This document shows, piece by piece, positions 43,246-57,001 of a DNA stretch of 64,000 bases; position 1 is the first letter of the stretch, and each line of letters starts with the position of its first letter. A program made the position numbers and the translations under genes. The notes under the pieces were generated by a model that was not told where the DNA came from, ran no database searches, and worked only from the letters and a program-made list of their open reading frames with translations. The DNA is from Escherichia coli (GTDB lineage Bacteria > Pseudomonadota > Gammaproteobacteria > Enterobacterales > Enterobacteriaceae): NCBI RefSeq assembly GCF_045037415.1, contig NZ_CP173438.1, one strand, 5' to 3'.

Positions 43246-43938
43246 CTAGTGATAACCACGCGCGGTCATAAAATCCGTAATCGCTTTTTCTGCATCAATC
43301 AGCACCTTTTCCAGTGGCTGATTAGCATCGATATCAACCAGTTGTGCACCGCCAAAGGTTAACTGTGGCGTTATGGCAATCTTCCTCGCCAGCGATTCCC
43401 GTTTATGGTCGGGTTTACGCGCGCAGGCAACTTCAAGGTCAACATTGAGTTTGATGACCAGATCAGGTTTATGGCTCGCCATCCAGTGAAACGCTTTACG
43501 TTCCTGGCTTGCCAGCCATGAGACAAAACGACCACCTTCAATGTTAGGTGGGAACACTGTACCATCGTAAGCGCCAGGAATTTGGTCCTGAGGATAACGG
43601 TCGGTTAGAACAATTAACCCGCGACGACGACAGGCAAGCATATGACGAAAGCGCAGTAAGCGACGGGCGACAAACGCTGTAATTACCAGCGCCGGAACTG
43701 GTCCTGGCAATTTTTTTGCTGTTTTCACCTGATTTCGTTCAATTGTTTTATGTAAGGATTTTCCCATCAACGGTAATTTTGTCACTGAACGACCGACATT
43801 TCCGGCCTGTTTTCCTAAATGAACTCTTTCGGCAGCACCATATTTTTCGACAACGGTAATGAGATGTTCACACACCGTTGACTTGCCTGAACCATCGCTA
43901 CCAATAACGGCAATTAATGGAGGTGTTATTGACTGCAT
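43246..43938 (-). CDS. yghT: P-loop nucleotide/nucleoside-kinase-like protein YghT
   Basis: 230-aa ORF with Walker [10 protein letters not shown], a TDRYPQ motif and a lid-like ARKPDH block; paralogous to the two following genes. Confidence 0.85.
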
Positions 43939-44111
43939 GAATATATCCTTTAATTTAAATATCCATTAAAAATATTTATTTGGTTAATATGTTTTTATGA
44001 AAGCGTAATTCAGGTCAATGTCACAATTAACCATTGTCACAATAAGGTTGAACGGATATTCTGAGCACGGACCACGTAATATTCAATACATTATTTGCTG
44101 CCGGGTTTTTC

Positions 44112-44825
44112 GTGAATCAACGTAATATGTCAATAATTAATTCCACGCCAGTGCGTGTTATTGCCATTGTAGGATGTGATGGTTCAGGTAAATCGACCCT
44201 CACGGCAAGCCTGGTAAATGAACTGGCAGCAACAATGCCAACAGAACACATTTATCTCGGGCAATCGTCCGGGCGAATTGGCGAATGGATTTCACAGCTC
44301 CCTGTTATTGGCGCACCTTTTGGGCGTTATCTGCGAAGTAAAGCGGCACATGTGCACGAAAAGCCCTCCACACCGCCTGGCAATATGACTGCGCTGGTTA
44401 TCTATCTGCTTTCCTGCTGGCGGGCGTATAAGTTTCGCAAAATGTTGTGTAAAAGCCAGCAAGGCTATCTGCTCATCACCGACCGCTACCCGCAGGTTGA
44501 AGTGCCGGGTTTTCGCTTTGATGGCCCGCAATTGGCAAAAACCACGGGCGGTAACGGTTGGATAAAAATGTTAAGGCAGCGCGAGCTGAAGCTGTACCAA
44601 TGGATGGCATCTTATTTGCCCGTATTGTTGATTCGTCTTGGCATTGATGAACAAACCGCGTTTGCGCGTAAACCTGACCACCAACTGGCGGCGTTACAGG
44701 AAAAAATCGCCGTTACGCCGCAACTGACATTTAATGGCGCCAGGATCCTTGAACTGGATGGTCGGCAACCAGCCGATGAAATTCTGCAAGCGTCACTACG
44801 CGCAATTCAAGCTGCGCTTTCCTGA
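44112..44825 (+). CDS. yghS: P-loop kinase-like protein YghS
   Basis: 237-aa ORF starting at GTG (44112); Walker A GCDGSGKST, TDRYPQ, ARKPDH. Confidence 0.85.
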   Translation: MNQRNMSIINSTPVRVIAIVGCDGSGKSTLTASLVNELAATMPTEHIYLGQSSGRIGEWISQLPVIGAPFGRYLRSKAAHVHEKPSTPPGNMTALVIYLLSCWRAYKFRKMLCKSQQGYLLITDRYPQVEVPGFRFDGPQLAKTTGGNGWIKMLRQRELKLYQWMASYLPVLLIRLGIDEQTAFARKPDHQLAALQEKIAVTPQLTFNGARILELDGRQPADEILQASLRAIQAALS

Positions 44826-44856
44826 TCACCAAAATGGATAGGGGATGATTTAACGA

Positions 44857-45630
44857 ATGGACGCACTACAAACACAAACTGTTAATAGTACAACCGCGCC
44901 GCAGCCCAACTACATTCCGGGGCTGATTGCGGTGGTCGGGTGTGATGGCACCGGTAAATCCACACTGACCACCGACCTCGTGAAATCGCTGCAACAACAC
45001 TGGCAAACCGAGCGGCGCTATCTGGGGCTGCTCTCGGGCGAAGACGGCGACAAAATCAAACGATTGCCGTTGGTTGGCGTCTGGCTCGAAAGGCGACTGG
45101 CGGCCAAATCATCGAAAACCCAAAGCATGAAAACCCAAAGCATGAAAACCAAATCTCCAGCGCTATGGGCGGCGGTGATTATGTACTGCTTCTCGCTGCG
45201 AAGAATGGCGAATCTACGCAAGGTTCAGCGACTGGCGCAAAGTGGCGTTCTGGTGGTCAGCGATCGCTTCCCGCAGGCTGAAATTTCGGGCTTTTATTAT
45301 GACGGACCGGGGATCGGCGTCGAACGTGCGACCGGGAAAATCAGCATGTTTCTGGCGCAGCGCGAACGGCGTTTATACCAAAAAATGGCGCAATACCGTC
45401 CTGAATTAATCATTCGTTTGGGGATTGATATTGATACTGCCATCTCCCGCAAGCCTGACCATGACTATGCCGAGCTGCAGGACAAAATCGGCGTCATGTC
45501 GACGATTGGCTATAACGGCACAAAAATTCTTGAGATTGATTCCAGAGCGCCCTACAGCGAAGTGCTGGAACAGGCACAGAAGGCGGTTTCTCTGGTTGCC
45601 ATCGTTTCTGACCGCCGAAGTTTAACTTAA
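44857..45630 (+). CDS. yghR: P-loop kinase-like protein YghR (carries an internal 5-aa tandem repeat)
   Basis: 257-aa ORF MDALQTQTVNSTTAPQPNYIPGLIAVVGCDGTGKST...; SDRFPQ and SRKPDH motifs. Confidence 0.85.
   Translation: MDALQTQTVNSTTAPQPNYIPGLIAVVGCDGTGKSTLTTDLVKSLQQHWQTERRYLGLLSGEDGDKIKRLPLVGVWLERRLAAKSSKTQSMKTQSMKTKSPALWAAVIMYCFSLRRMANLRKVQRLAQSGVLVVSDRFPQAEISGFYYDGPGIGVERATGKISMFLAQRERRLYQKMAQYRPELIIRLGIDIDTAISRKPDHDYAELQDKIGVMSTIGYNGTKILEIDSRAPYSEVLEQAQKAVSLVAIVSDRRSLT
45115..45150 (+). repeat. In-frame 15-bp tandem duplication inside yghR
   Basis: AAAACCCAAAGCATG occurs twice in tandem, followed by a partial third copy (AAAACC), encoding ...KTQSMKTQSMKTKS... Confidence 0.9.
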
Positions 45631-45675: not shown

Positions 45676-47025
45676 TTGGCGGGTTTTAACATCAAACATT
45701 GGTTTGCAGATGGCGCGTTTCGCACCATTATTCGCAATAGCGCCTGGTTAGGCTCCAGTAATGTCGTGAGCGCTTTACTGGGTCTGTTGGCGCTCTCGTG
45801 TGCCGGTAAAGGGATGACGCCCGCCATGTTTGGCGTACTGGTGATTGTACAATCGTACGCCAAGTCGATCAGCGATTTTATTAAGTTTCAGATATGGCAG
45901 CTGGTGGTTCAGTACGGAACACCAGCATTAACCAACAATAATCCGCAGCAATTCCGCAATGTCGTCTCATTTTCCTTCTCGCTGGATATCGTCAGCGGCG
46001 CGGTGGCGATTGTCGGCGGCATTGCCTTACTCCCTTTTCTTTCCCATTCATTAGGTCTGGATGACCAAAGCTTTTGGCTGGCAGCGCTGTATTGCACGCT
46101 CATTCCTTCAATGGCTTCCTCCACGCCGACCGGCATTCTGCGTGCGGTAGATCGCTTCGATCTAATTGCTGTACAGCAAGCGACGAAACCTTTTCTGCGC
46201 GCAGCGGGGAGCGTCGTAGCCTGGTATTTTGACTTTGGTTTTGCGGGTTTTGTTATTGCCTGGTACGTGTCGAATCTGGTTGGCGGCACCATGTACTGGT
46301 GGTTTGCCGCGCGCGAATTACGCCGCAGAAATATCCATAACGCCTTCAAATTGAATCTGTTTGAGTCTGCCCGACACATTAAAGGCGCGTGGAGTTTTGT
46401 CTGGTCAACCAACATTGCCCACTCCATCTGGTCGGCGCGTAACTCGTGCAGCACAGTGCTGGTGGGGATCGTGTTAGGACCCGCTGCCGCCGGGTTATTT
46501 AAAATCGCCATGACATTCTTCGACGCCGCCGGAACGCCAGCGGGTTTACTGGGCAAAAGTTTTTACCCAGAGGTGATGCGTTTAGATCCGCGCACCACCA
46601 GACCGTGGTTGTTAGGCGTGAAGTCAGGTTTACTGGCGGGCGGAATTGGTATTCTGGTGGCGCTCGCGGTGTTGATCGTCGGCAAGCCGCTTATTTCGCT
46701 GGTGTTTGGCGTTAAGTATCTCGAAGCGTATGACCTGATTCAGGTGATGCTGGGCGCAATTGTGATTTCGATGCTGGGCTTCCCACAGGAGTCATTGCTA
46801 TTGATGGCGGGAAAACAGCGCGCTTTTCTCGTGGCGCAAACCATCGCCTCAATCGGCTACATCGTATTGCTGTTCATGTTCTGTCATCTGTTTGGCGTGC
46901 TGGGAGCAGCGTTTGCTTATTTCGGTGGGCAATGTCTGGATGTGGTGCTCTCGTTAATTCCGACCTTAAAGGCATTTTTTCAGCGCCATTCCTTGCTTTA
47001 TAACGCAGCCGGAGAGAAATCCTGA
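45676..47025 (+). CDS. yghQ: MOP-superfamily (Wzx-like) polytopic membrane protein YghQ; start uncertain
   Basis: 449-aa track ORF beginning at TTG 45676 with AAGG 9 nt upstream; highly hydrophobic multi-TM protein. Stop overlaps the start of the next gene (TGATG). Confidence 0.75.
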   Translation: MAGFNIKHWFADGAFRTIIRNSAWLGSSNVVSALLGLLALSCAGKGMTPAMFGVLVIVQSYAKSISDFIKFQIWQLVVQYGTPALTNNNPQQFRNVVSFSFSLDIVSGAVAIVGGIALLPFLSHSLGLDDQSFWLAALYCTLIPSMASSTPTGILRAVDRFDLIAVQQATKPFLRAAGSVVAWYFDFGFAGFVIAWYVSNLVGGTMYWWFAARELRRRNIHNAFKLNLFESARHIKGAWSFVWSTNIAHSIWSARNSCSTVLVGIVLGPAAAGLFKIAMTFFDAAGTPAGLLGKSFYPEVMRLDPRTTRPWLLGVKSGLLAGGIGILVALAVLIVGKPLISLVFGVKYLEAYDLIQVMLGAIVISMLGFPQESLLLMAGKQRAFLVAQTIASIGYIVLLFMFCHLFGVLGAAFAYFGGQCLDVVLSLIPTLKAFFQRHSLLYNAAGEKS

Positions 47026-47849
47026 TGATGAGAAAATATTTCCCGCTTGAGGCGAGCGAGCGTTTATTTGTTGCAGTTGAAGAAGATGATGTCGTTGATG
47101 CACAGGTCAGTTTGCCGCCGACTATCGCACTAAGTTGTACCACCGAAATCATCCATGATAATTACGCGTTATGCCTGCAATTCTGGCTCAATGGCGTCAA
47201 TCGCCAGGAGTTACTGCGTTTAATATGCAAACAGGCCAAAGGCGATGAGCTGACTGCTGATGAGCGCAAACAATTTAAATACATGCGAGCGCGCTACAAG
47301 CACCTGCGTTTTGCGCAACGGCTGTATTTAAAGAAGCATCAGGCCGGATTTTTATTCGGCAAAACGACCGTTTTTTTGGGGCGTTTTCAGGACGGTTTTC
47401 GTAACGGTAAGAAAAATATTGTGTCGTATTACGGCAACTTGTTACGGGTTTATTTAAGCTCTCCGGTCTGGTCGTTGGTGAACTATTCATTACGCCATAG
47501 CCAGTTAGAAAGCGTAAGCGGTTTTATTGCCTATCGGCAAAAGCAAATGCATACCCTGAAAGAGATAATTGCCAAACCGCGACTCACCGGCAGGGAATTT
47601 CATGATGTGCGAAAAATCATCAGCCAGCAGGTTTCTTATTACGACACCTTAAGATCGCTTGATCCTGAAAATAAAGAGGCGTTACAGATTTCCCGCTTCC
47701 TCGCCGCCATTAATGGCCTGATGGGGGATAAACACGACGACATGGTGGCGGATGATATGGAAAACCGCCAGTCGTATGATGCACCGGTGGCGCTGGATAG
47801 CGATATTCGCCAGCGCTTAGAGCTGCTGATTTCGCGTTTTCCGCTATAA
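47025..47849 (+). CDS. Hypothetical soluble protein, no recognisable family
   Basis: 274-aa ORF MMRKYFPLEASERLFVAVEEDD...; coding assignment rests on length, coupling to yghQ (1-nt overlap) and operon context. Confidence 0.6.
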   Translation: MMRKYFPLEASERLFVAVEEDDVVDAQVSLPPTIALSCTTEIIHDNYALCLQFWLNGVNRQELLRLICKQAKGDELTADERKQFKYMRARYKHLRFAQRLYLKKHQAGFLFGKTTVFLGRFQDGFRNGKKNIVSYYGNLLRVYLSSPVWSLVNYSLRHSQLESVSGFIAYRQKQMHTLKEIIAKPRLTGREFHDVRKIISQQVSYYDTLRSLDPENKEALQISRFLAAINGLMGDKHDDMVADDMENRQSYDAPVALDSDIRQRLELLISRFPL

Positions 47850-47857
47850 CCGGAGCA

Positions 47858-48421
47858 ATGATGTCATCTCGTTTGATTATTGCGCTGATTATCATGCTCT
47901 TAGCCCAGGGTGTGCAGGCACACAATTTTGTCACTGGCAAAACGGTTACCCCCGTTTATATCCAGGAAGGCGGCGAGCTGCTTCTGAATAGCGACGACGA
48001 AATTCACTACCAAAAGTGGAACAGCACACAGCTGGCGGGAAAAGTCCGCATTATCCAGTATATCGCCGGGCGTAAGTCGGCGAAGAAAAAGAACTCACTG
48101 TTAATTAAAGCGGTTGAAGCGGCAAACTTTCCGCAGGATCGTTTTCAGCCCACCACCATTGTGAACACCGATGATGCCATCTTTGGTACTGGCTATTTTG
48201 TCGTTGGCAAAATCGAAAAAAATAAACGCCGCTATCCGTGGGCGCAATTCGTTATTGACGGCAATGGACTGGGACGCGTTGCCTGGCGGTTGCCGGAGCA
48301 GAGTTCAACCATTCTGGTGCTGAATAAAGACGGGCAAATTCAGTGGGCAAAGGACGGCAGCCTGACGCCGGAAGAGGTAGATCATGTCATTGCGCTGGCG
48401 CAGAAACTGATCAATGAATAA
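47858..48421 (+). CDS. YtfJ-family periplasmic protein
   Basis: 187-aa ORF with signal peptide MMSSRLIIALIIMLLAQGVQA and GGAG Shine-Dalgarno; body resembles my recollection of YtfJ (QKWNS..LAGKVR..QYIAGR, TTIVNTDDAI, LNKDG..QWAKDG.LTPEEV). Confidence 0.65.
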   Translation: MMSSRLIIALIIMLLAQGVQAHNFVTGKTVTPVYIQEGGELLLNSDDEIHYQKWNSTQLAGKVRIIQYIAGRKSAKKKNSLLIKAVEAANFPQDRFQPTTIVNTDDAIFGTGYFVVGKIEKNKRRYPWAQFVIDGNGLGRVAWRLPEQSSTILVLNKDGQIQWAKDGSLTPEEVDHVIALAQKLINE

Positions 48422-48451
48422 AAAATTCAAAGGATTGAGGGTGTTAGTGAG

Positions 48452-49522
48452 ATGAAGCTGGTTGAACACTACATCATGCGTGGTACGCGCCGTCTGGTGC
48501 TGATTATCGTCGGTTTTCTGATCTTTATTTTCGCCAGCTACTCCGCACAGCGTTATCTGACCGAAGCGGCAAATGGGACCTTAGCTCTTGATGTTGTGCT
48601 GGATATCGTTTTCTACAAAGTGCTGATTGCACTGGAGATGTTGTTACCTGTTGGTCTGTATGTGTCAGTTGGCGTGACGCTAGGGCAGATGTATACCGAC
48701 TCGGAAATTACCGCTATCTCTGCGGCGGGGGGCAATCCGGGACGCTTGTACAAAGCCGTTCTTTATCTGGCGATACCGCTAAGTATTTTTGTCACCCTTC
48801 TGTCGATGTATGGTCGGCCGTGGGCTTATGCGCAGATTTATCAACTGGAGCAACAGTCGCAGTCGGAGCTGGATGTTCGCCAGTTGCGGGCAAAGAAATT
48901 TAACACTAACGATAACGGACGAATGATCCTTTCGCAGACGGTTGATCAGGATAATAATCGCCTGACTGACGCGCTGATTTATACTTCTACTGCCAATCGA
49001 ACCCGCATTTTCCGCGCCCGTTCGGTTGATGTGGTTGACCCATCACCTGAGAAACCGACCGTTATGTTGCATAACGGGACCGCCTATCTTCTCGATCATC
49101 AGGGGCGTGACGACAACGAACAGATCTACCGTAATCTGCAATTACATCTGAATCCGCTGGATCAAAGCCCTAACGTCAAACGCAAAGCAAAATCGGTCAC
49201 GGAGCTGGCGCGCTCAGCCTTTCCTGCCGATCATGCCGAACTGCAATGGCGACAAAGCCGTGGCCTGACAGCATTGTTGATGGCGCTGCTGGCCATTTCA
49301 TTAAGTCGGGTAAAACCGCGGCAAGGGCGATTTTCAACGTTATTGCCACTGACATTGCTGTTTGTTGCCATTTTTTATGGCGGCGACGTCTGCCGTACGC
49401 TGGTGGCTAACGGTGCGATTCCCCTCATTCCTGGTTTGTGGTTAGTACCCGGACTCATGCTAATGGGCCTGCTGATGCTGGTCGCACGCGACTTCTCTTT
49501 GCTGCAGAAATTTTCCCGATGA
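48452..49522 (+). CDS. LptF/LptG-family (YjgP/YjgQ) permease paralog
   Basis: 356-aa ORF: three N-terminal TM segments, a central soluble domain and C-terminal TM segments, the architecture of LPS-export permeases. Confidence 0.75.
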   Translation: MKLVEHYIMRGTRRLVLIIVGFLIFIFASYSAQRYLTEAANGTLALDVVLDIVFYKVLIALEMLLPVGLYVSVGVTLGQMYTDSEITAISAAGGNPGRLYKAVLYLAIPLSIFVTLLSMYGRPWAYAQIYQLEQQSQSELDVRQLRAKKFNTNDNGRMILSQTVDQDNNRLTDALIYTSTANRTRIFRARSVDVVDPSPEKPTVMLHNGTAYLLDHQGRDDNEQIYRNLQLHLNPLDQSPNVKRKAKSVTELARSAFPADHAELQWRQSRGLTALLMALLAISLSRVKPRQGRFSTLLPLTLLFVAIFYGGDVCRTLVANGAIPLIPGLWLVPGLMLMGLLMLVARDFSLLQKFSR

Positions 49523-50598
49523 ATGTTTTCAGTCGCTATTTAATCCGTCATCTCTTTCTCGGTTTTGCCGCCGCCGCAGGGCTATTGCTGCCGCTTTTTA
49601 CCACCTTCAACCTGATTAACGAACTGGATGATGTCAGCCCGGGCGGTTATCGCTGGACTCAGGCGGTGCTGGTGGTGCTGATGACCTTACCGCGTACACT
49701 GGTCGAACTTTCGCCGTTTATCGCATTATTGGGAGGGATTGTTGGCCTGGGGCAGTTATCGAAAAACAGTGAGCTTACCGCCATTCGCAGCACTGGGTTT
49801 TCTATCTTCCGTATTGCACTGGTGGCGCTGGTTGCCGGGATATTGTGGACTGTTTCGTTAGGCGCGATAGATGAGTGGGTGGCGTCGCCATTGCAGCAAC
49901 AGGCGCTGCAAATCAAATCGACTGCCACCGCGTTGGGGGAGGACGATGACATTACCGGCAATATGCTTTGGGCCAGGCGCGGTAATGAATTTGTGACGGT
50001 GAAATCGCTGAACGAGCAGGGCCAGCCTGTGGGCGTGGAGATATTTCATTATCGCGACGATCTCTCGCTCGAATCCTACATTTTTGCACGCAGTGCCTCC
50101 ATTGAAGACGACAAAACGTGGATCCTGCATGGTGTGAATCATAAAAAATGGTTGAATGGCAAAGAAACGCTGGAAACATCAGATAATCTTGCCTGGCAAT
50201 CGGCCTTCACCAGTATGGATCTTGAAGAGTTATCGATGCCGGGGAATACTTTTTCTGTCCGTCAGCTTAATCATTACATCCATTATTTGCAGGAAACCGG
50301 ACAACCCAGCAGCGAATACCGCCTTGCACTGTGGGAAAAACTGGGGCAACCGATCCTGACCCTGGCGATGATTTTGCTGGCTGTGCCGTTCACCTTTAGC
50401 GCCCCGCGCTCGCCAGGGATGGGTAGCCGTCTCGCTGTAGGCGTCATCGTTGGCTTACTCACCTGGATCAGCTATCAAATCATGGTCAATCTGGGATTGT
50501 TATTTGCGTTGAGCGCACCTGTTACCGCGCTCGGTTTACCGGTAGCGTTTGTGTTGGTGGCGTTGAGCCTGGTGTATTGGTATGACAGACAACATTAA
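49519..50598 (+). CDS. LptF/LptG-family (YjgP/YjgQ) permease paralog, LptG-like
   Basis: Track ORF 49438..50598; preferred start ATG at 49519 (MNVFSRYLIRHLFLGFAAAAGLLLPLFTTFNLINELDDV...) overlapping the upstream stop (ATGA). The N-terminus and LSKNSELTAIRSTGFS block parallel E. coli LptG. Confidence 0.78.
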   Translation: MNVFSRYLIRHLFLGFAAAAGLLLPLFTTFNLINELDDVSPGGYRWTQAVLVVLMTLPRTLVELSPFIALLGGIVGLGQLSKNSELTAIRSTGFSIFRIALVALVAGILWTVSLGAIDEWVASPLQQQALQIKSTATALGEDDDITGNMLWARRGNEFVTVKSLNEQGQPVGVEIFHYRDDLSLESYIFARSASIEDDKTWILHGVNHKKWLNGKETLETSDNLAWQSAFTSMDLEELSMPGNTFSVRQLNHYIHYLQETGQPSSEYRLALWEKLGQPILTLAMILLAVPFTFSAPRSPGMGSRLAVGVIVGLLTWISYQIMVNLGLLFALSAPVTALGLPVAFVLVALSLVYWYDRQH

Positions 50599-50632
50599 AC
50601 CCGCCGTGGCGCAACACCACAGCGGGCTCACA
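50599..50632. terminator. Stem-loop between the convergent LptG-like gene and the AOS-like gene
   Basis: CCCGCCGTGG-CGCAACA-CCACAGCGGG, imperfect 10-bp inverted repeat filling the 34-bp gap between two convergent stop codons. Confidence 0.45.
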
Positions 50633-51805
50633 TTACTGCTTCAGAGTAGCAAATGCCTGAATGATGGCATCGATTTGCTCACGACTGTGGGCAGCGTTTA
50701 CGCTACAGCGCAGCAGAGTGATGCCTGCAGGCGCGGCAGGTGGCAGGATAAGATTCACATAAACGCCCAGCGAAATAAGCTCGCGCCAGATGCGTAAACC
50801 TTCCTCTTTCGAACCGATTATTACTGGCACTACCGGGCTAATATGTGAACTTAACTCATAACCCAGTTTTTGCAGACCGTCATACAGATGGTTGGCGTTA
50901 TCCATCAGTTTTTGCCGCAGCTCTGGTTGTGTGGCAATGGTTCTTAACGACGAGCGCACGGTCGCAATGCAGGACGGAGAAGGAGAGGCGGTAAAAATAT
51001 ACGGGCGGCTGCCGTAGCGCAGCACTTCCATCGCTTCCGAACCGACAGCAAAACCGCCAATCGAGGCCAGACTTTTACTGAAAGTACCAACGATAATATC
51101 CACATCATCTTCAACGCCAACGGCTTCAGCCAGTCCGCGCCCCGTTGCGCCTAACACGCCAAACGAATGCGCTTCATCGACAATCAAATAACCACCGAGA
51201 CGACGTTTGATATCAACAATTTCCGCTAACGGCGCAACGTCACCGAGCATGCTGTAGATGCCCTCAACGATGATAATCGCCTCTTTCGCCCGTTCACCGA
51301 GGCGAACCATGCGCCGTTCCAGATCTTTAGCATCGTTATGGCGGAAACGAATAATTTCTGCGCCACCGAGAGAACAGGCGTCATAAATACTGGCGTGGCT
51401 GTCGGCATCCAGTAACACCACGGCGTTATGGTCGGCAAGTGCGCTGATGACGCCTAAATTAGCGGTATAACCGGTTGAAAAAACGATAGCGGTAGGGCGA
51501 TTGAAAAACTCGGCAATCTCTTTCTCTAACGCCAGGTGCGGCGCATAACTGCCGTTTGCCATACGAGAACCGGTGGTGCCGGTGCCTTGGGCCGCTAACG
51601 CTGCCTGACCTTCGGCGATGGCATCATGATTAAAGGTTAAACCGAGATAATTATTGGTCCCGGCCAGAATCACTTTTTTATTGCCGATCCGACCTTCGGT
51701 GGCGGAATACACTTCATCAATACAGGTGCCAAACGGTGTTAACCCGTTGTCACTAAATTGCAGTCGCTCGCCAGCAAGGCGCGCATATTTATCGTATAGC
51801 CCCAT
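50633..51805 (-). CDS. PLP-dependent alpha-oxoamine synthase (serine palmitoyltransferase / BioF / Kbl family)
   Basis: 390-aa ORF with VDEAHSFG and the PLP-lysine block GTFSKS; start ATG overlaps the ACP stop (TAATG). Confidence 0.85.
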   Translation of the reverse strand: MGLYDKYARLAGERLQFSDNGLTPFGTCIDEVYSATEGRIGNKKVILAGTNNYLGLTFNHDAIAEGQAALAAQGTGTTGSRMANGSYAPHLALEKEIAEFFNRPTAIVFSTGYTANLGVISALADHNAVVLLDADSHASIYDACSLGGAEIIRFRHNDAKDLERRMVRLGERAKEAIIIVEGIYSMLGDVAPLAEIVDIKRRLGGYLIVDEAHSFGVLGATGRGLAEAVGVEDDVDIIVGTFSKSLASIGGFAVGSEAMEVLRYGSRPYIFTASPSPSCIATVRSSLRTIATQPELRQKLMDNANHLYDGLQKLGYELSSHISPVVPVIIGSKEEGLRIWRELISLGVYVNLILPPAAPAGITLLRCSVNAAHSREQIDAIIQAFATLKQ

Positions 51806-52053
51806 TATTTATTCTCCAGCCATGGAAGTAGAGTTTCCATTAATTGCGCAGGGGTTTTGACATCCAGCAGAATATTAATAGGAATGGAAATATCGAATCT
51901 GTCTTCCAGCATCATTAAGAGATCCATCACTTTGATCGACTCCAGGCCAAGATCGTTGACGAGATCGCTGTCGGGCTTAATTTCCACACCGTTTTCGACC
52001 AAATCCTGTAAACAGGAAAGGATGTAATCCATTACTATTTCACGATTTACCAT
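51805..52053 (-). CDS. Acyl carrier protein
   Basis: 82-aa acidic protein with a phosphopantetheine-attachment-like DLGLESI motif. Confidence 0.75.
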   Translation of the reverse strand: MVNREIVMDYILSCLQDLVENGVEIKPDSDLVNDLGLESIKVMDLLMMLEDRFDISIPINILLDVKTPAQLMETLLPWLENK

Positions 52054-52084
52054 AGAAACGTTAACACACCTTTAAACAAGACAA

Positions 52085-52999
52085 TCAAAATAGCCCGTTG
52101 CGTAATGCGTGTTCCAGGCTAATCCCGGGAAACCAATTAATATCTTCAGAAATACGGTTATTACTTGCCGACCAGTCGGCATGGGTTAATTCACGGATTT
52201 TCGAACGAGTCAGCATCGGTTCTTTACCCGCCAGACGGCTCAACGCGGTACTGATATCCGCAAGGCAGGTGAGTAGCGGCAGAGGAATACCGACCATCCG
52301 CACGGAACCACAGCGGACATCGGCAACAAGCTGTTGGACACGTTGCCAGTCATAGCCTCCGGCGACGCCATCGCATAATTCATAGGTTTGCGTCTGTACA
52401 GTTTCGGCGCTTAACCACTGACCCACTGCTTGCGCAAAATCGGTGACGTGCAGGAAAGAGAGCTGTGTCTCTGGCGTGCCAAGTCGTGGCAGCAGACCGC
52501 GCAGCATCCAGTCAAACAGCGGTTTTAACTCTTTATCGCCGGGACCATACACGGCTGTCGGGCGAAAAACGCCCAACGTAATTGCGTCAGCCATTGCAGT
52601 CAGCTGTTGTTCGGCGACGTGTTTGGAATTTGCGTACCAGGAGAGTTCGGGATGGCGCGCCGCCAGCGAAGAGATAAACAGAAATCGTTGGCAAAAGCCG
52701 CTCTCTTTTGCCGCTTGCATCAGGCGCAGGCTGCCGTCAACGTTGCAGCGGGTAAAAATCTCTTCTTTGTGCCCGCGCACTTGCCCGGCGCAATGGACCA
52801 CCGCGCTGGCTCCGGTAACCAGTTCGCTAAGCGAATGTGTATCTTCCAGCGAACCGCGCACCCAAGTGAGATTATCATTGACGTGAGCGCGGGCAGTACG
52901 CGTCAATGCGCGAACGTGAAAGCCGCGGGCGAGCAGGTTATCAATAATATATTTACCGATAAACCCGGTAGCGCCCGTCACCGCGACAGTTTGATTCAT
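52085..52999 (-). CDS. NAD(P)-dependent epimerase/dehydratase-family (extended SDR) reductase
   Basis: 304-aa ORF with Rossmann VTGATGFIG and catalytic YxxxK (YANSK); start ATG overlaps the upstream stop (ATGA). Confidence 0.82.
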   Translation of the reverse strand: MNQTVAVTGATGFIGKYIIDNLLARGFHVRALTRTARAHVNDNLTWVRGSLEDTHSLSELVTGASAVVHCAGQVRGHKEEIFTRCNVDGSLRLMQAAKESGFCQRFLFISSLAARHPELSWYANSKHVAEQQLTAMADAITLGVFRPTAVYGPGDKELKPLFDWMLRGLLPRLGTPETQLSFLHVTDFAQAVGQWLSAETVQTQTYELCDGVAGGYDWQRVQQLVADVRCGSVRMVGIPLPLLTCLADISTALSRLAGKEPMLTRSKIRELTHADWSASNNRISEDINWFPGISLEHALRNGLF

Positions 53000-54744
53000 G
53001 CCAGGGACTCCTGCACATGAAGACTGGCAGCATAAGCCTTCTGATAACGTTTTTTCGCTTCCGCACGGGCAGGCTTGCCGGAGGATGTTCGGGGAATACT
53101 GTGGGGCGGCAACAGATCGATATCCGCGGTAACGCCAAATTCGCTTTGGATCCGTGCTGCCAGCGCGTGGATAAGCTGCCCGCGACGTTCTTCATCGCTG
53201 ATCCGACACTGGATCTGCAAAATGATTTTTTCCTGGGCGGTAACAAAAGCAATCGCATCGCCAGAATGAATTTCCGGTTCCTGTTCCGCAATATATTCAA
53301 TATCCTGCGGCCAGATATTACGGCCACGAATAATAATCAGATCTTTAATGCGTCCGGTGACATACAGATAACCGTCCAGCAGATAACCGAGGTCGCCGGT
53401 GTCTAACCAGCCCGTCGCGGCAATCTCGTCTTGTGAAATCTGGTCGCCAAAGTAACCGCTCATCAGGCTAGGGCCGGAGATGCAAATATGGCCTACCACA
53501 CGTTCCGCGACAGGTATACCTGCTTCATTGCGGATTTCAATGCCATGTTCCGGCAACGCTTTACCGCAGTTGACGAAAGTCGATACGGCGCGTGTTTCAG
53601 CACCCGGCGCGACGGCTTTACCCTGGTATTCGAGGATGTCGCGATCCACTTCGTTAACCACAACCCCGGAAGCTTCATCAGAGAAGCTGACAGCCAGCGC
53701 ATTTTCTGCCAGTCCGTAGCACGGCATGAAAGTTTTATCGTCAAAGTTGACCTGACGGAAACATTCAGCGAATTGATGGAGTTGTTCTGCGGAGATGGGT
53801 TCTGCACCAATACCAGCGACGCGCCAGCAGGAAAGATCCAGTTCAGCGAGATCTTTTTCATTCACGCGGCGCTGGCACAATTCATAGCCAAACGGCGGCG
53901 CAACGGAAACGGTGCCGCGATTTTTACTGATCAATTTAAGCCATTGCAGAGGACGCATGGCAAAATCCTGAGTGCGCAAATAATCTACTGAAAGCTGCGT
54001 GGCGACGGGGGTCAGGAGAAAGCCGACCAGTCCCATATCATGGTAGAAAGGCAGCCAGGAGACGCAGCGGTCGCCAGGGCGTAATTTAATCCCATCGTGG
54101 CTTATAGCACGTAGATTAGCCATCACTTCGCGGTGAGTAATGATAACGCCACGGGGAAAACGGGTGCTGCCGGAGGTGTACTGGAGGTAGGCGATATCGT
54201 TTGGAACTGGACGTTGAAGCGCAACATCGGCTTCCGGTAATGCCTTAAACCAGGCGTGGCTTAAAACATGTAATTCGGGATTGTTATGCGTCGCGGCATT
54301 GACCAGTGGCAACCACTCATCACCAGTGATAATGGCTGCGGGCTGGCAACTTGCCAGTAACCCCTGCAGTTTGGCGCTCCAGGAATCCCGCTGACCGACG
54401 CCCATTGGAATCGCCAACGGGACGGCGACTAAGCCGGCATACTGGCAGGCAAAAAAAGCCTCTACAAACCCGCTACTCGTTTCGGCAATCAGTGCCACGC
54501 GATCGCCTTTTTTCAGGTTCAGCGATAACAACCGCTTCGCACCAGCTTCGGCACGCGCTTTTAACGTCTGATATTCCAGTTGATCTTCAAGTTGGCAACG
54601 TCTGTCATAAAAATTCATTCCAGCGCTACTCAGAGCGGCATAGTCCAAAGCATCAACCAGCGTTGGAAAATCGGCATAGCGCATAGGTAGGGAATGCGTA
54701 AAGATTTTATTAGACATATACACCACGAAAAAATTGGATATCAA
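52996..54744 (-). CDS. Fatty acyl-AMP ligase / acyl-ACP synthetase (AMP-dependent synthetase family); start uncertain
   Basis: Track ORF starts at TTG 54744; an in-frame ATG at 54717 (MSNKIF...) is the alternative. AMP-binding core YTSGSTRFPRGV and a C-terminal ...SGKPAR... block. Confidence 0.82.
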   Translation of the reverse strand: MISNFFVVYMSNKIFTHSLPMRYADFPTLVDALDYAALSSAGMNFYDRRCQLEDQLEYQTLKARAEAGAKRLLSLNLKKGDRVALIAETSSGFVEAFFACQYAGLVAVPLAIPMGVGQRDSWSAKLQGLLASCQPAAIITGDEWLPLVNAATHNNPELHVLSHAWFKALPEADVALQRPVPNDIAYLQYTSGSTRFPRGVIITHREVMANLRAISHDGIKLRPGDRCVSWLPFYHDMGLVGFLLTPVATQLSVDYLRTQDFAMRPLQWLKLISKNRGTVSVAPPFGYELCQRRVNEKDLAELDLSCWRVAGIGAEPISAEQLHQFAECFRQVNFDDKTFMPCYGLAENALAVSFSDEASGVVVNEVDRDILEYQGKAVAPGAETRAVSTFVNCGKALPEHGIEIRNEAGIPVAERVVGHICISGPSLMSGYFGDQISQDEIAATGWLDTGDLGYLLDGYLYVTGRIKDLIIIRGRNIWPQDIEYIAEQEPEIHSGDAIAFVTAQEKIILQIQCRISDEERRGQLIHALAARIQSEFGVTADIDLLPPHSIPRTSSGKPARAEAKKRYQKAYAASLHVQESLA

Positions 54745-55087
54745 AAATAAAATGACAATAATGCGGTGGATTATATAGGCATAAAAGATAAATGAGATAG
54801 TATTTTCATCGGTGCGATATTGAACATTGATTTAAATAATAGGTTTTGTTTTGTTGTTTTTATTGTGAATGATATTTGATTTATGAATGTATTAAGAATG
54901 AACCTTGTCTGACCGCATTAAATCGCTAAAAGGCATTGTGGCGCTTCTTCGTTGGCTGTGATCTTATCGTAATCATTAATAAATAATATTTATTCTTATT
55001 TTGTATTCATGGTGTTGATTATTAAGATGCCGTTCGTTGCTGTTGCAACCTGTTTTTCATCGTTAATTATTTGTTATCCACAGAGAT
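54745..55087. promoter_or_regulatory. AT-rich divergent intergenic region between the lipid-synthesis operon and yghO
   Basis: ~340 bp of visibly AT-rich sequence with A/T tracts (e.g. TTTTGTTTTGTTGTTTTTATTGTGAATGATATTTGATTTATGAATG) between two divergent starts. Confidence 0.4.
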
Positions 55088-56230
55088 ATGGAATGCGATC
55101 TGCTGATGATTAAAATTGAAAAAGTAATTAATAAAAATGACCTTAAGGCATTTATCGCTTTTCCGTCATCACTTTATCCCGACGATCCAAACTGGATACC
55201 CCCTTTATTCATTGAACGCAACGAGCATTTGTCTGCGAAAAATCCGGGGACGGACCATATCATCTGGCAGGCGTGGGTGGCAAAAAAAGCGGGGCAGATA
55301 GTTGGGCGTATTACCGCGCAAATAGATACCTTGCACCGCGAGCGTTACGGCAAAGATACCGGTCATTTCGGCATGATTGACGCCATTGATGATCCGCAGG
55401 TTTTTGCCGCGTTGTTTGGCGCAGCGGAAGCGTGGTTGAAGTCACAAGGTGCAAGTAAGATCAGCGGTCCTTTCAGCCTGAATATCAATCAGGAAAGCGG
55501 ATTACTGATTGAAGGTTTCGATACACCACCCTGTGCGATGATGCCGCACGGTAAACCGTGGTATGCCGCGCATATTGAACAATTGGGTTATCACAAAGGC
55601 ATTGATTTACTGGCGTGGTGGATGCAGCGAACCGATCTCACTTTCTCTCCGGCGCTAAAAAAACTGATGGATCAGGTGCGTAAGAAGGTGACCATTCGCT
55701 GCATCAATCGCCAGCGGTTTGCCGAAGAGATGCAGATCCTGCGTGAGATTTTCAATTCTGGCTGGCAGCACAACTGGGGATTTGTGCCGTTTACCGAACA
55801 TGAATTCGCGACCATGGGCGACCAACTTAAATATCTGGTGCCGGACGATATGATCTACATCGCTGAGATTGATTCTGCACCCTGCGCGTTTATTGTCGGC
55901 TTGCCAAACATCAACGAGGCGATTGCCGATCTGAACGGATCGCTCTTTCCCTTCGGCTGGGCAAAATTGCTGTGGCGTTTAAAAGTCAGCGGTGTGCGAA
56001 CTGCGCGAGTACCGCTGATGGGCGTGCGGGACGAGTATCAGTTCAGCCGCATCGGCCCGGTGATTGCGTTGTTATTGATTGAAGCCTTACGCGATCCGTT
56101 TGCCCGCCGGAAGATCGATGCGCTGGAGATGTCATGGATCCTCGAAACCAATACAGGCATGAATAACATGCTGGAACGCATTGGGGCGGAGCCGTACAAG
56201 CGTTACCGATTGTATGAAAAGCAGATTTGA
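55088..56230 (+). CDS. yghO: GNAT-like acyltransferase-family protein YghO, apparently intact
   Basis: 380-aa continuous ORF MECDLLMIKIEKVINKNDLKAF... (alternative start ATG at 55106). I recall K-12 yghO being annotated as a pseudogene. Confidence 0.7.
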   Translation: MECDLLMIKIEKVINKNDLKAFIAFPSSLYPDDPNWIPPLFIERNEHLSAKNPGTDHIIWQAWVAKKAGQIVGRITAQIDTLHRERYGKDTGHFGMIDAIDDPQVFAALFGAAEAWLKSQGASKISGPFSLNINQESGLLIEGFDTPPCAMMPHGKPWYAAHIEQLGYHKGIDLLAWWMQRTDLTFSPALKKLMDQVRKKVTIRCINRQRFAEEMQILREIFNSGWQHNWGFVPFTEHEFATMGDQLKYLVPDDMIYIAEIDSAPCAFIVGLPNINEAIADLNGSLFPFGWAKLLWRLKVSGVRTARVPLMGVRDEYQFSRIGPVIALLLIEALRDPFARRKIDALEMSWILETNTGMNNMLERIGAEPYKRYRLYEKQI

Positions 56231-56236
56231 TGGCAG

Positions 56237-57001
56237 TCACCCCTGCTTCATCTCCAGCGGCACCGCCGAGCGAATCAAATGGTGGCCTTCCAGCTCGATA
56301 TCGTGGAGATTCTTTTTCACGGTCCGCACATGATCGCGTGCTGCGCGCTGGGCGACGTGCGGCAGCCGCTGCAACACCGCGTTGTAGATCCGCGCATGCT
56401 GGCGATCGATCTGCTTTTTTTGCTGTGGTCGATGGTAGAGATTATTTACGCTGGCAAACACCGAATTAAACATCAGGTCGGTCAATGATTGCAGCGTAAA
56501 CTCCAGCACCTGATTGTGAGAAGCCTGACAAATGGCGAGATGGAAAGCGTGATCCAACTGCGCATGTTCGATCAGCGAAATCTCTTTGTTGTTCTCACTG
56601 GCGGCGAGCATTTTTTCATAACAGCGGGTTATCACAACAAAATCAGCCTGGGTTCCCAGCGTTGCCGCCAGCCTTGCCGATTCGCCCTCCAGTAATGCGC
56701 GAACGTCGAGCAGATCGTACAGCGTTCGCGGCTGCGTACTGAACAGATGGATCAGCGGGCTGGTGTCCTGCACCCGATTAAGCCGTGCGACACGAGAATC
56801 GCGACCCTGCGCCGTTTCAATAATCCCGCGCCCGCGCAGCACGGTCAGCCCTTCACGCAGTGCGGAGCGTGAGAAGCCGAGCTTTTCACACAGTCGACGT
56901 TCCGAGGGAAGCGGCTGACCGACCTTCAGTACGCCGTCGATAATTAACCGTTCGATACTCTCTGCAACCACTTCGCAAATAGGGCGACGTTCATCTTTCA
57001 T
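56237..57001 (-). CDS. glcC: GntR/FadR-family glycolate-responsive activator
   Basis: Track ORF 56237..57061; preferred start ATG at 57001 (MKDERRPICEVVAESIERLI...), 254 aa. Confidence 0.93.
   Translation of the reverse strand: MKDERRPICEVVAESIERLIIDGVLKVGQPLPSERRLCEKLGFSRSALREGLTVLRGRGIIETAQGRDSRVARLNRVQDTSPLIHLFSTQPRTLYDLLDVRALLEGESARLAATLGTQADFVVITRCYEKMLAASENNKEISLIEHAQLDHAFHLAICQASHNQVLEFTLQSLTDLMFNSVFASVNNLYHRPQQKKQIDRQHARIYNAVLQRLPHVAQRAARDHVRTVKKNLHDIELEGHHLIRSAVPLEMKQG

Follow-up and report, generated by a model that had tools for sequence, protein, structure and literature searches.

The yghO gene lies in a 64,000-nucleotide stretch of Escherichia coli DNA (contig NZ_CP173438.1, hereafter the window), where it diverges from a set of lipid-synthesis genes; its product is very probably the ortholog, in E. 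coli, of the bacterial ceramide synthase (bCerS, also Aca) known from Caulobacter.

The yghO gene and its protein family

On the plus strand at 55088-56230, yghO forms an ATG-initiated open reading frame (ORF) of 380 codons plus stop, annotated here as a putative bCerS/Aca ortholog from the ORF itself, RefSeq and homology. Both the ORF listing and a direct reading of the DNA show zero internal stops, and RefSeq places 'yghO: protein YghO' (1143 nt) at the same positions in a strain that is 100% identical across window positions 54700-56300, a stretch matched at 100% identity by several complete E. coli genomes; the continuous 380-codon frame described in the first-pass annotation is thus borne out by all three. 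The close-homolog search recovered orthologs of 374 residues from Serratia, Citrobacter, Pluralibacter, Erwinia, Hafnia and other genera; these begin at an ATG equivalent to 55106, which in those genera is preceded by an AAGG Shine-Dalgarno-like motif. A further in-frame ATG upstream, at 55088, is found solely in E. coli and contributes six more codons (MECDLL). Because the 374-residue orthologs start at its equivalent ATG, the start common to other genera is probably 55106, while E. coli itself may initiate at either 55088 or 55106. Upstream, yghO is separated from the minus-strand fatty acyl-AMP ligase (FAAL) gene by a divergent intergenic spacer (54685-55087) that is as AT-rich as first described, with a GC content of 29.7% over 54745-55087 against 51% for the entire window, and that presumably holds the promoters of both genes. 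A consensus scan of this spacer for sigma-70 promoters and terminators yielded promoter-like sites no more commonly than shuffled sequence, and no promoter is therefore mapped in it. Downstream of yghO lie glcC and glcDEFGB.

The substitution pattern indicates that yghO is not a chance ORF and that purifying selection on it is strong, with a ratio of non-synonymous to synonymous rates (dN/dS) of about 0.06 in comparisons both with Pluralibacter and with a divergent species representative of E. coli, and with 15 synonymous and 0 non-synonymous differences relative to the BL21 and K-12 lineages. The gene is present in 4548 of 5426 complete E. coli genomes (84%; at least 80% of its length in 4529), with a median of one yghO place per genome and about 16% of genomes giving no match, and the serine palmitoyltransferase gene spt is found in 4134 of the same set (76%). 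The resulting gap of some 400 genomes is about the size expected if it consists mostly of K-12-type genomes, in which spt is gone but most of yghO is retained. An intact yghO beside the lipid operon is the majority state among complete genomes and hence not peculiar to the window.

At thresholds as loose as E ≤ 10, Pfam returns nothing for YghO, which likewise matches no NCBIfam model, and a phmmer search of it against PDB sequences gave no significant hit, so the fold was settled through structure prediction. As modeled, the protein is two fused GNAT domains, the C-terminal half of which keeps the cofactor-binding signature, and 295 of its 374 residues align to a tandem GNAT in fold matching; the 'GNAT-like' label of the first-pass annotation is correct at the level of fold, from the structure model and its tandem-GNAT matches, and not by Pfam hidden Markov model. 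The approximate N-terminal domain (residues 1 to ~175 in 374-residue numbering, 55106-55630, plus strand; from the model and fold matches) carries the conserved motifs VGRI(S/T)AQ, GHFG and GPFxL(S/N)INxExGLL. The approximate C-terminal domain (residues ~195-374, 55688-56227, plus strand; from the model, profile and fold matches) contains a motif-A-like LMGVRxxYQxSxxG together with NWGFVP, LPFGWAKLLWRLK, SWILExN and YKxYRxYEK, and by analogy with MshD is likely the acyl-thioester-binding and catalytic half. At sub-threshold scores, the family profile aligns this C-terminal region to motif A and later strands of the GNAT structures 3tt2 and 2ge3, with a 4-residue insertion in the motif A loop of the YghO family relative to 3tt2, and PF00583 (Acetyltransf_1) is reached by 5 of 63 family members at E ≤ 0.001 and by 19 of 63 at E ≤ 0.1, YghO not among them. 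No transmembrane-like segment is apparent in YghO (top 19-residue hydropathy, 1.36).

Family proteins are full-length at about 375-390 residues, and a search of representatives clustered at 50% identity returned 6,480 clusters at E ≤ 0.001, 1,119 of them at E ≤ 1e-30. The family is structurally uniform and has no Pfam or NCBIfam model; its homologs are named inconsistently as N-acetyltransferase, DNA-binding transcriptional regulator, dATP pyrophosphohydrolase, VagC, RimI-like or 'hypothetical protein associated with serine palmitoyltransferase'. Several predicted architectures depart from the single-copy form: in P0132 (630 residues) a YghO-like domain is preceded by an N-terminal extension whose histidine boxes recall a fatty-acid hydroxylase, in P0121 (784 residues) the whole YghO-like protein is tandemly duplicated, and P0191 (940 residues) is a predicted YghO-like GNAT-FAAL fusion. 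This last is weak evidence, since its contig (L095) is full of fragmented genes and allows an assembly or frameshift artefact.

Relationship to Caulobacter bCerS

The assignment of YghO to ceramide synthesis is already known, since Padilla-Gomez et al. 2022 (PMC9386255) list 'aca: CC_1154, yghO ECD_02850' among five ceramide-synthesis genes and report E = 1e-107, 44% identity and 98% coverage between CC_1154 and ECD_02850. The BL21-lineage protein shares its accession (WP_001300526.1) with the strain that matches the window over the compared stretch. As an independent test of this assignment, we searched metagenome contigs for exact matches to the 22-nt 5' primer with which ccna_01212 (bcerS) has been cloned, the primer sequences being those published by Uchendu et al. 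2024 (supplement). Two contigs of 68-72% GC carry a 384-residue ORF that opens with the forward primer and closes exactly at the reverse primer; a third match (L092) encodes a 28-residue ORF and was set aside as chance. BLASTP of YghO against this Caulobacter bCerS gives 164 identities over 365 positions (45%), 62% positives, two gaps and E = 2e-111, in an alignment covering YghO residues 12-374 and in agreement with the published 44% and 1e-107. On one of the two contigs, the gene is preceded by two same-strand ORFs, the nearer of which resembles the E. coli LptG paralog, a layout that agrees with the published CC_1156-CC_1155-CC_1154 arrangement. No named Caulobacter homolog appears among the top 120 close homologs listed (all at least 79% identical), in three cluster look-ups, in the best 80 related loci or in the AFDB50 top 50.

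The two proteins also agree in broader features. Caulobacter bCerS/Aca (CCNA_01212 = CC_1154) and YghO fall in one length class (384 and 374 residues) and share the family-invariant residues, both are soluble with no predicted transmembrane segment, and both are associated with spt, acpR, aasR, an SDR gene and LptF/G paralogs. The arrangement differs in that E. coli yghO stands alone, divergent from an aasR-SDR-acpR-spt operon, whereas in Caulobacter lptF2, lptG2 and then bcerS make up one apparent operon, with bcerS several genes from spt; moreover, the E. coli cluster is without the DAGK_cat ceramide kinase and has the P-loop proteins YghR, YghS and YghT instead. YghO combines the features that mark the bCerS/Aca family, namely full-length homology, a soluble GNAT fold and association with an spt cluster. 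The first-pass annotation had proposed a bCerS-like N-acyltransferase from context, naming as contrary outcomes a lack of similarity to bCerS or homology to a regulator or aminoglycoside acetyltransferase family instead; the alignment now supplies the similarity, and neither contrary outcome was encountered when both were looked for. On these grounds, YghO is very probably the E. coli ortholog of Caulobacter bCerS.

The surrounding cluster and its loss in K-12

The nearest neighbor of yghO across the spacer is the FAAL gene (minus strand, 52996-54684), an AasR ortholog and ECD_02851 in BL21, identified by RefSeq and by its score of 874 bits for NCBIfam NF006624 (cut-off 600), the longest ORF starting at 54744 and the RefSeq gene at 54684. 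AasR is a specialized synthetase that loads acyl carrier protein (ACP), with functional data for the E. coli protein (PMC9386255). It is followed on the same strand by an SDR of the NAD-dependent epimerase/dehydratase family (ECD_02852, 52085-52999), a candidate CerR from annotation and family membership, whose keto-reductase role was proposed in PMC9386255; by the specialized ACP AcpR (ECD_02853, 51805-52053, from annotation), shown to carry 4'-phosphopantetheine (PMC9386255); and by serine palmitoyltransferase Spt (ECD_02854, 50633-51805), which matches the NCBIfam equivalog NF047599 at 600 bits against a cut-off of 500 and the BL21 form of which is active as an enzyme (PMC9386255). Caulobacter CerR is reported to be periplasmic, but the window SDR opens straight on its Rossmann motif (MNQTVAVTGATGFIGKY...) and lacks an obvious signal peptide; a compartment argument for step order may not transfer to E. 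coli.

Beyond Spt, the plus strand carries an LptF/LptG paralog pair (48452-50598 in RefSeq; lptF2 at 48452-49522, lptG2 at 49519-50598), counterparts of which have been proposed as sphingolipid export permeases in the Caulobacter literature, and, by annotation, the MOP-type 'lipopolysaccharide biosynthesis protein' gene yghQ (45676-47025), a gene for a 274-residue hypothetical protein (47025-47849) and one for a YtfJ-family protein with a signal-peptide-like N terminus (47861-48421), all on the plus strand. The last three are co-conserved with the cluster in Enterobacterales, and the presence of the LptF/G pair, the YtfJ-family protein and YghQ beside ceramide genes suggests dedicated sphingolipid export in E. 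coli. Flanking the cluster are yghT, yghS and yghR (43246-45630), whose products are P-loop proteins that bear the annotations 'dTMP kinase' or ATP-binding; the three genes accompany the cluster also in Erwinia, Rosenbergiella, Cedecea, Mangrovibacter, Pseudocitrobacter and a betaproteobacterial metagenome-assembled genome (L060); YghR, YghS and YghT might be lipid head-group kinases.

We scanned species-representative genomes with a 14-sequence query alignment, retained the best 80 loci (47-96% identity) and searched these for partner genes by tblastn with the E. coli cluster proteins. Near the yghO homologs, LptF/G paralogs were found in 48 of the 80 loci, FAAL in 44, Spt in 40, ACP in 39 and the SDR in 38; at least one partner lies within 10 kb in 72, and five of the eight exceptions are on contigs under 7 kb in length. 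The layout in which FAAL-SDR-ACP-Spt and YghO diverge is kept in Enterobacterales, Pseudomonas, Salinicola, Nitrococcus, Desulfobacteraceae and Gemmatimonadota, and in Serratia and Pluralibacter the genes on the far side of yghO are unrelated to those of E. coli. In Nitrosomonas-type loci the homolog is followed by LptF2-LptG2, resembling Caulobacter, and the published separation of Neut_1100 from Neut_0458-0461 (PMC9386255) is consistent with this layout. The complete set occurs, together with a fatty-acid hydroxylase and a DAGK_cat kinase, in an unrelated 3.6-Mb genome. FAAL and the SDR are the neighbors most constantly present, and at three full-length loci (L030, L063, L069) they occur with Spt and ACP absent within 10 kb.

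K-12-type genomes have lost most of this region. Read base by base at the junction after blastn alignment, 8,383 bp of the window (46745-55127) are replaced by the insertion sequence IS5, and the associated deletion begins in the 3' end of yghQ, spans the entire cluster for transport and synthesis as well as the spacer, and stops 40 nt into yghO; in the K-12-type genome compared (L002), homology to the window restarts at 55128. RefSeq calls a chimeric 378-residue coding sequence there 'protein YghO' (L002, 5967-7103) and does not flag it as a pseudogene. Its ATG lies inside the IS5 end, and its first 12 codons (MISYQGLVRTFL) are IS5-derived before the sequence continues as NKNDL...; according to the structure model, the native residues so replaced take in the beta-strand with which the N-terminal domain begins. 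Beyond this stretch the K-12 protein equals that of the window, and since the remaining gene differs by 15 synonymous and 0 non-synonymous changes, the deletion looks recent. The K-12 form is the derived state. Presumably the K-12 databases flag yghO as a pseudogene, and what the first-pass annotation says of K-12 is in essence right, the 5' 40 nt and the promoter region having been lost to IS5.

The locus is a hotspot of change mediated by insertion sequences. An IS1 insertion or deletion interrupts yghO in Ecol_AZ146 and spt in 21368 and 23CRST014, everything downstream of about codon 42 of yghO is removed in Ec-RL2-1X, and everything downstream of the FAAL gene is removed in 21AH057 (IS1); the two partial-match strains examined are individual IS1-mediated rearrangements.

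Proposed pathway, alternatives and known systems

In the mechanism that we consider most likely, with high confidence, AasR would load a fatty acid onto the dedicated AcpR, Spt would condense acyl-AcpR with serine to give 3-ketosphinganine (3-KDS), and an acyl thioester would provide the second fatty acyl chain, which YghO would transfer to the C2 amino group of the long-chain base. The acceptor would be either 3-ketosphinganine, in the order of the Klein laboratory, or sphinganine, in that of the Geiger laboratory, with the SDR reducing the 3-keto group to complete dihydroceramide and YghQ, LptF2 and LptG2 as candidates for outward movement of the lipid. Coexpressed AasR, AcpR and Spt of E. 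coli B make 3-oxo-sphinganine, and ceramide-like species seen by thin-layer chromatography in BL21(DE3) have been attributed to the chromosomal ECD_02850 (Padilla-Gomez et al. 2022, PMC9386255). We infer the reaction of YghO, its acyl donor and the order of steps, as well as, from MshD, the catalytic role of its C-terminal domain. In Caulobacter, the Klein laboratory has bCerS acting first, in the cytoplasm and on 3-KDS, and the Geiger laboratory originally proposed that reduction precedes N-acylation. A donor supplied by the FAAL/AcpR pair rather than acyl-coenzyme A (acyl-CoA) is suggested by the FAAL gene being the most constant neighbor and by the single predicted GNAT-FAAL fusion, on its low-quality contig.

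Several points weigh against this assignment and pathway. With no curated model, family membership depends on pairwise and profile homology plus fold, and the members of so large a family (6,480 clusters) need not all be ceramide synthases. Some indeed lie away from spt: P0135 (L087), the second copy in Shimwellia pseudoproteus (L019), and those at L082 and L083. A single function is consequently not to be assumed for the whole family, within which YghO itself falls in the spt-linked group. At the alphaproteobacterial-type locus L087 the homolog adjoins a NUDIX hydrolase gene, an adjacency that may, as a guess, be the source of the 'dATP pyrophosphohydrolase' label. Even for Caulobacter it is disputed whether acyl-CoA or acyl-AcpR is the donor and whether 3-KDS or sphinganine is the acceptor; the searchable literature yielded neither a biochemical or genetic test of E. 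coli YghO nor any account of sphingolipids made natively by E. coli; and the AT-richness of the spacer might mean that the locus is silent in laboratory conditions.

These points leave room for readings in which YghO does something else, or nothing. It could be a tandem-GNAT acetyl- or acyltransferase whose acceptor is an amine of a non-sphingoid kind, for example an amino sugar (as for the Clostridium glucosamine N-acetyltransferase), a thiol precursor (MshD-like), an aminoglycoside (Eis-like) or protein lysines, with the adjacency to spt only loosely tied to its chemistry. The closest solved folds (5kf1, 4zm6, 1ozp, 2wpw and Eis) acetylate small amines, public annotations say 'N-acetyltransferase', the K-12 form was among the GNAT candidates of a lysine-acetyltransferase screen, and the spt-unlinked members would fit as well. 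Identity to those structures is however just 11-17% with no significant match at the sequence level, against 45% over the full length to a Caulobacter ceramide-synthesis gene, and the linkage to FAAL, SDR, ACP and Spt is conserved across phyla, so that we regard a non-sphingoid acceptor as improbable. The older database names on homologs are the sole support for YghO being a DNA-binding transcriptional regulator or a dATP pyrophosphohydrolase; a Pfam scan found no DNA-binding domain, there is neither a helix-turn-helix nor a Nudix domain, and the two GNAT domains account for the chain, with 295 of 374 residues aligned to the tandem-GNAT fold. We have rejected both annotations, which now have next to no credibility.

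A different kind of alternative accepts an intact yghO and takes the locus as a remnant, cryptic or silenced, in which YghO would serve no physiological purpose in the species, the repeated losses through insertion sequences reflecting dispensability. K-12 lost the cluster through IS5 with no obvious harm, other strains have IS1 insertions or deletions in yghO, spt or their flanks, about 24% of complete genomes are without spt, the promoter region is about 30% GC, and no reports of native E. coli sphingolipids were found. Set against this are the strong purifying selection (dN/dS of about 0.06; 0 non-synonymous against 15 synonymous differences), the presence of the cluster in 76% of complete genomes and its retention by many further Enterobacterales, and the apparent further processing of 3-oxo-sphinganine by chromosomal enzymes of BL21 (PMC9386255), which together make a remnant very unlikely. 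The converse extension, that most E. coli lineages and many Enterobacterales natively make YghO-dependent ceramide-type lipids and export them through a dedicated second LptF/G, is one we put forward tentatively, as somewhat doubtful at present; it would include Serratia, Citrobacter, Hafnia, Erwinia and Pluralibacter, and production may occur under conditions outside laboratory use. If true, the textbook lipid composition of E. coli reflects the K-12 IS5 deletion.

The gene, its intactness outside K-12 and its proposed role are all already known from public annotation and the literature. Seen across the species, K-12 is the exception, and most E. coli appear to hold a selectively maintained cluster for sphingolipid synthesis and export. 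For the disputed questions of acceptor (3-ketosphinganine or sphinganine) and donor (acyl-CoA or acyl-ACP) in bacterial ceramide synthesis, YghO offers an easy soluble target.

Among known systems other than bCerS, the tandem GNATs MAB_4324 of M. abscessus (7q3a), the mycothiol synthase MshD (1ozp), the clavulanate ORF14 (2wpw) and the glucosamine N-acetyltransferase of C. acetobutylicum (5kf1) share 13-15% identity with YghO and acetylate small soluble amines, whereas YghO is predicted to place a long acyl chain on a lipid amine. Eis-type aminoglycoside acetyltransferases and N-myristoyltransferase are at about 11-12% identity and differ in accessory domains, context and acceptors, YghO being without sequence-level homology to Eis or AAC enzymes. 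Eukaryotic ceramide synthases (CerS; Lag1, TLC domain) carry out the same reaction as that predicted for YghO, N-acylation of a sphingoid base, and are not homologous to it: YghO has no TLC/TRAM-LAG1 Pfam match and is soluble, whereas CerS is a polytopic membrane protein, in line with the convergence of bacterial and eukaryotic ceramide synthases already described in the literature.
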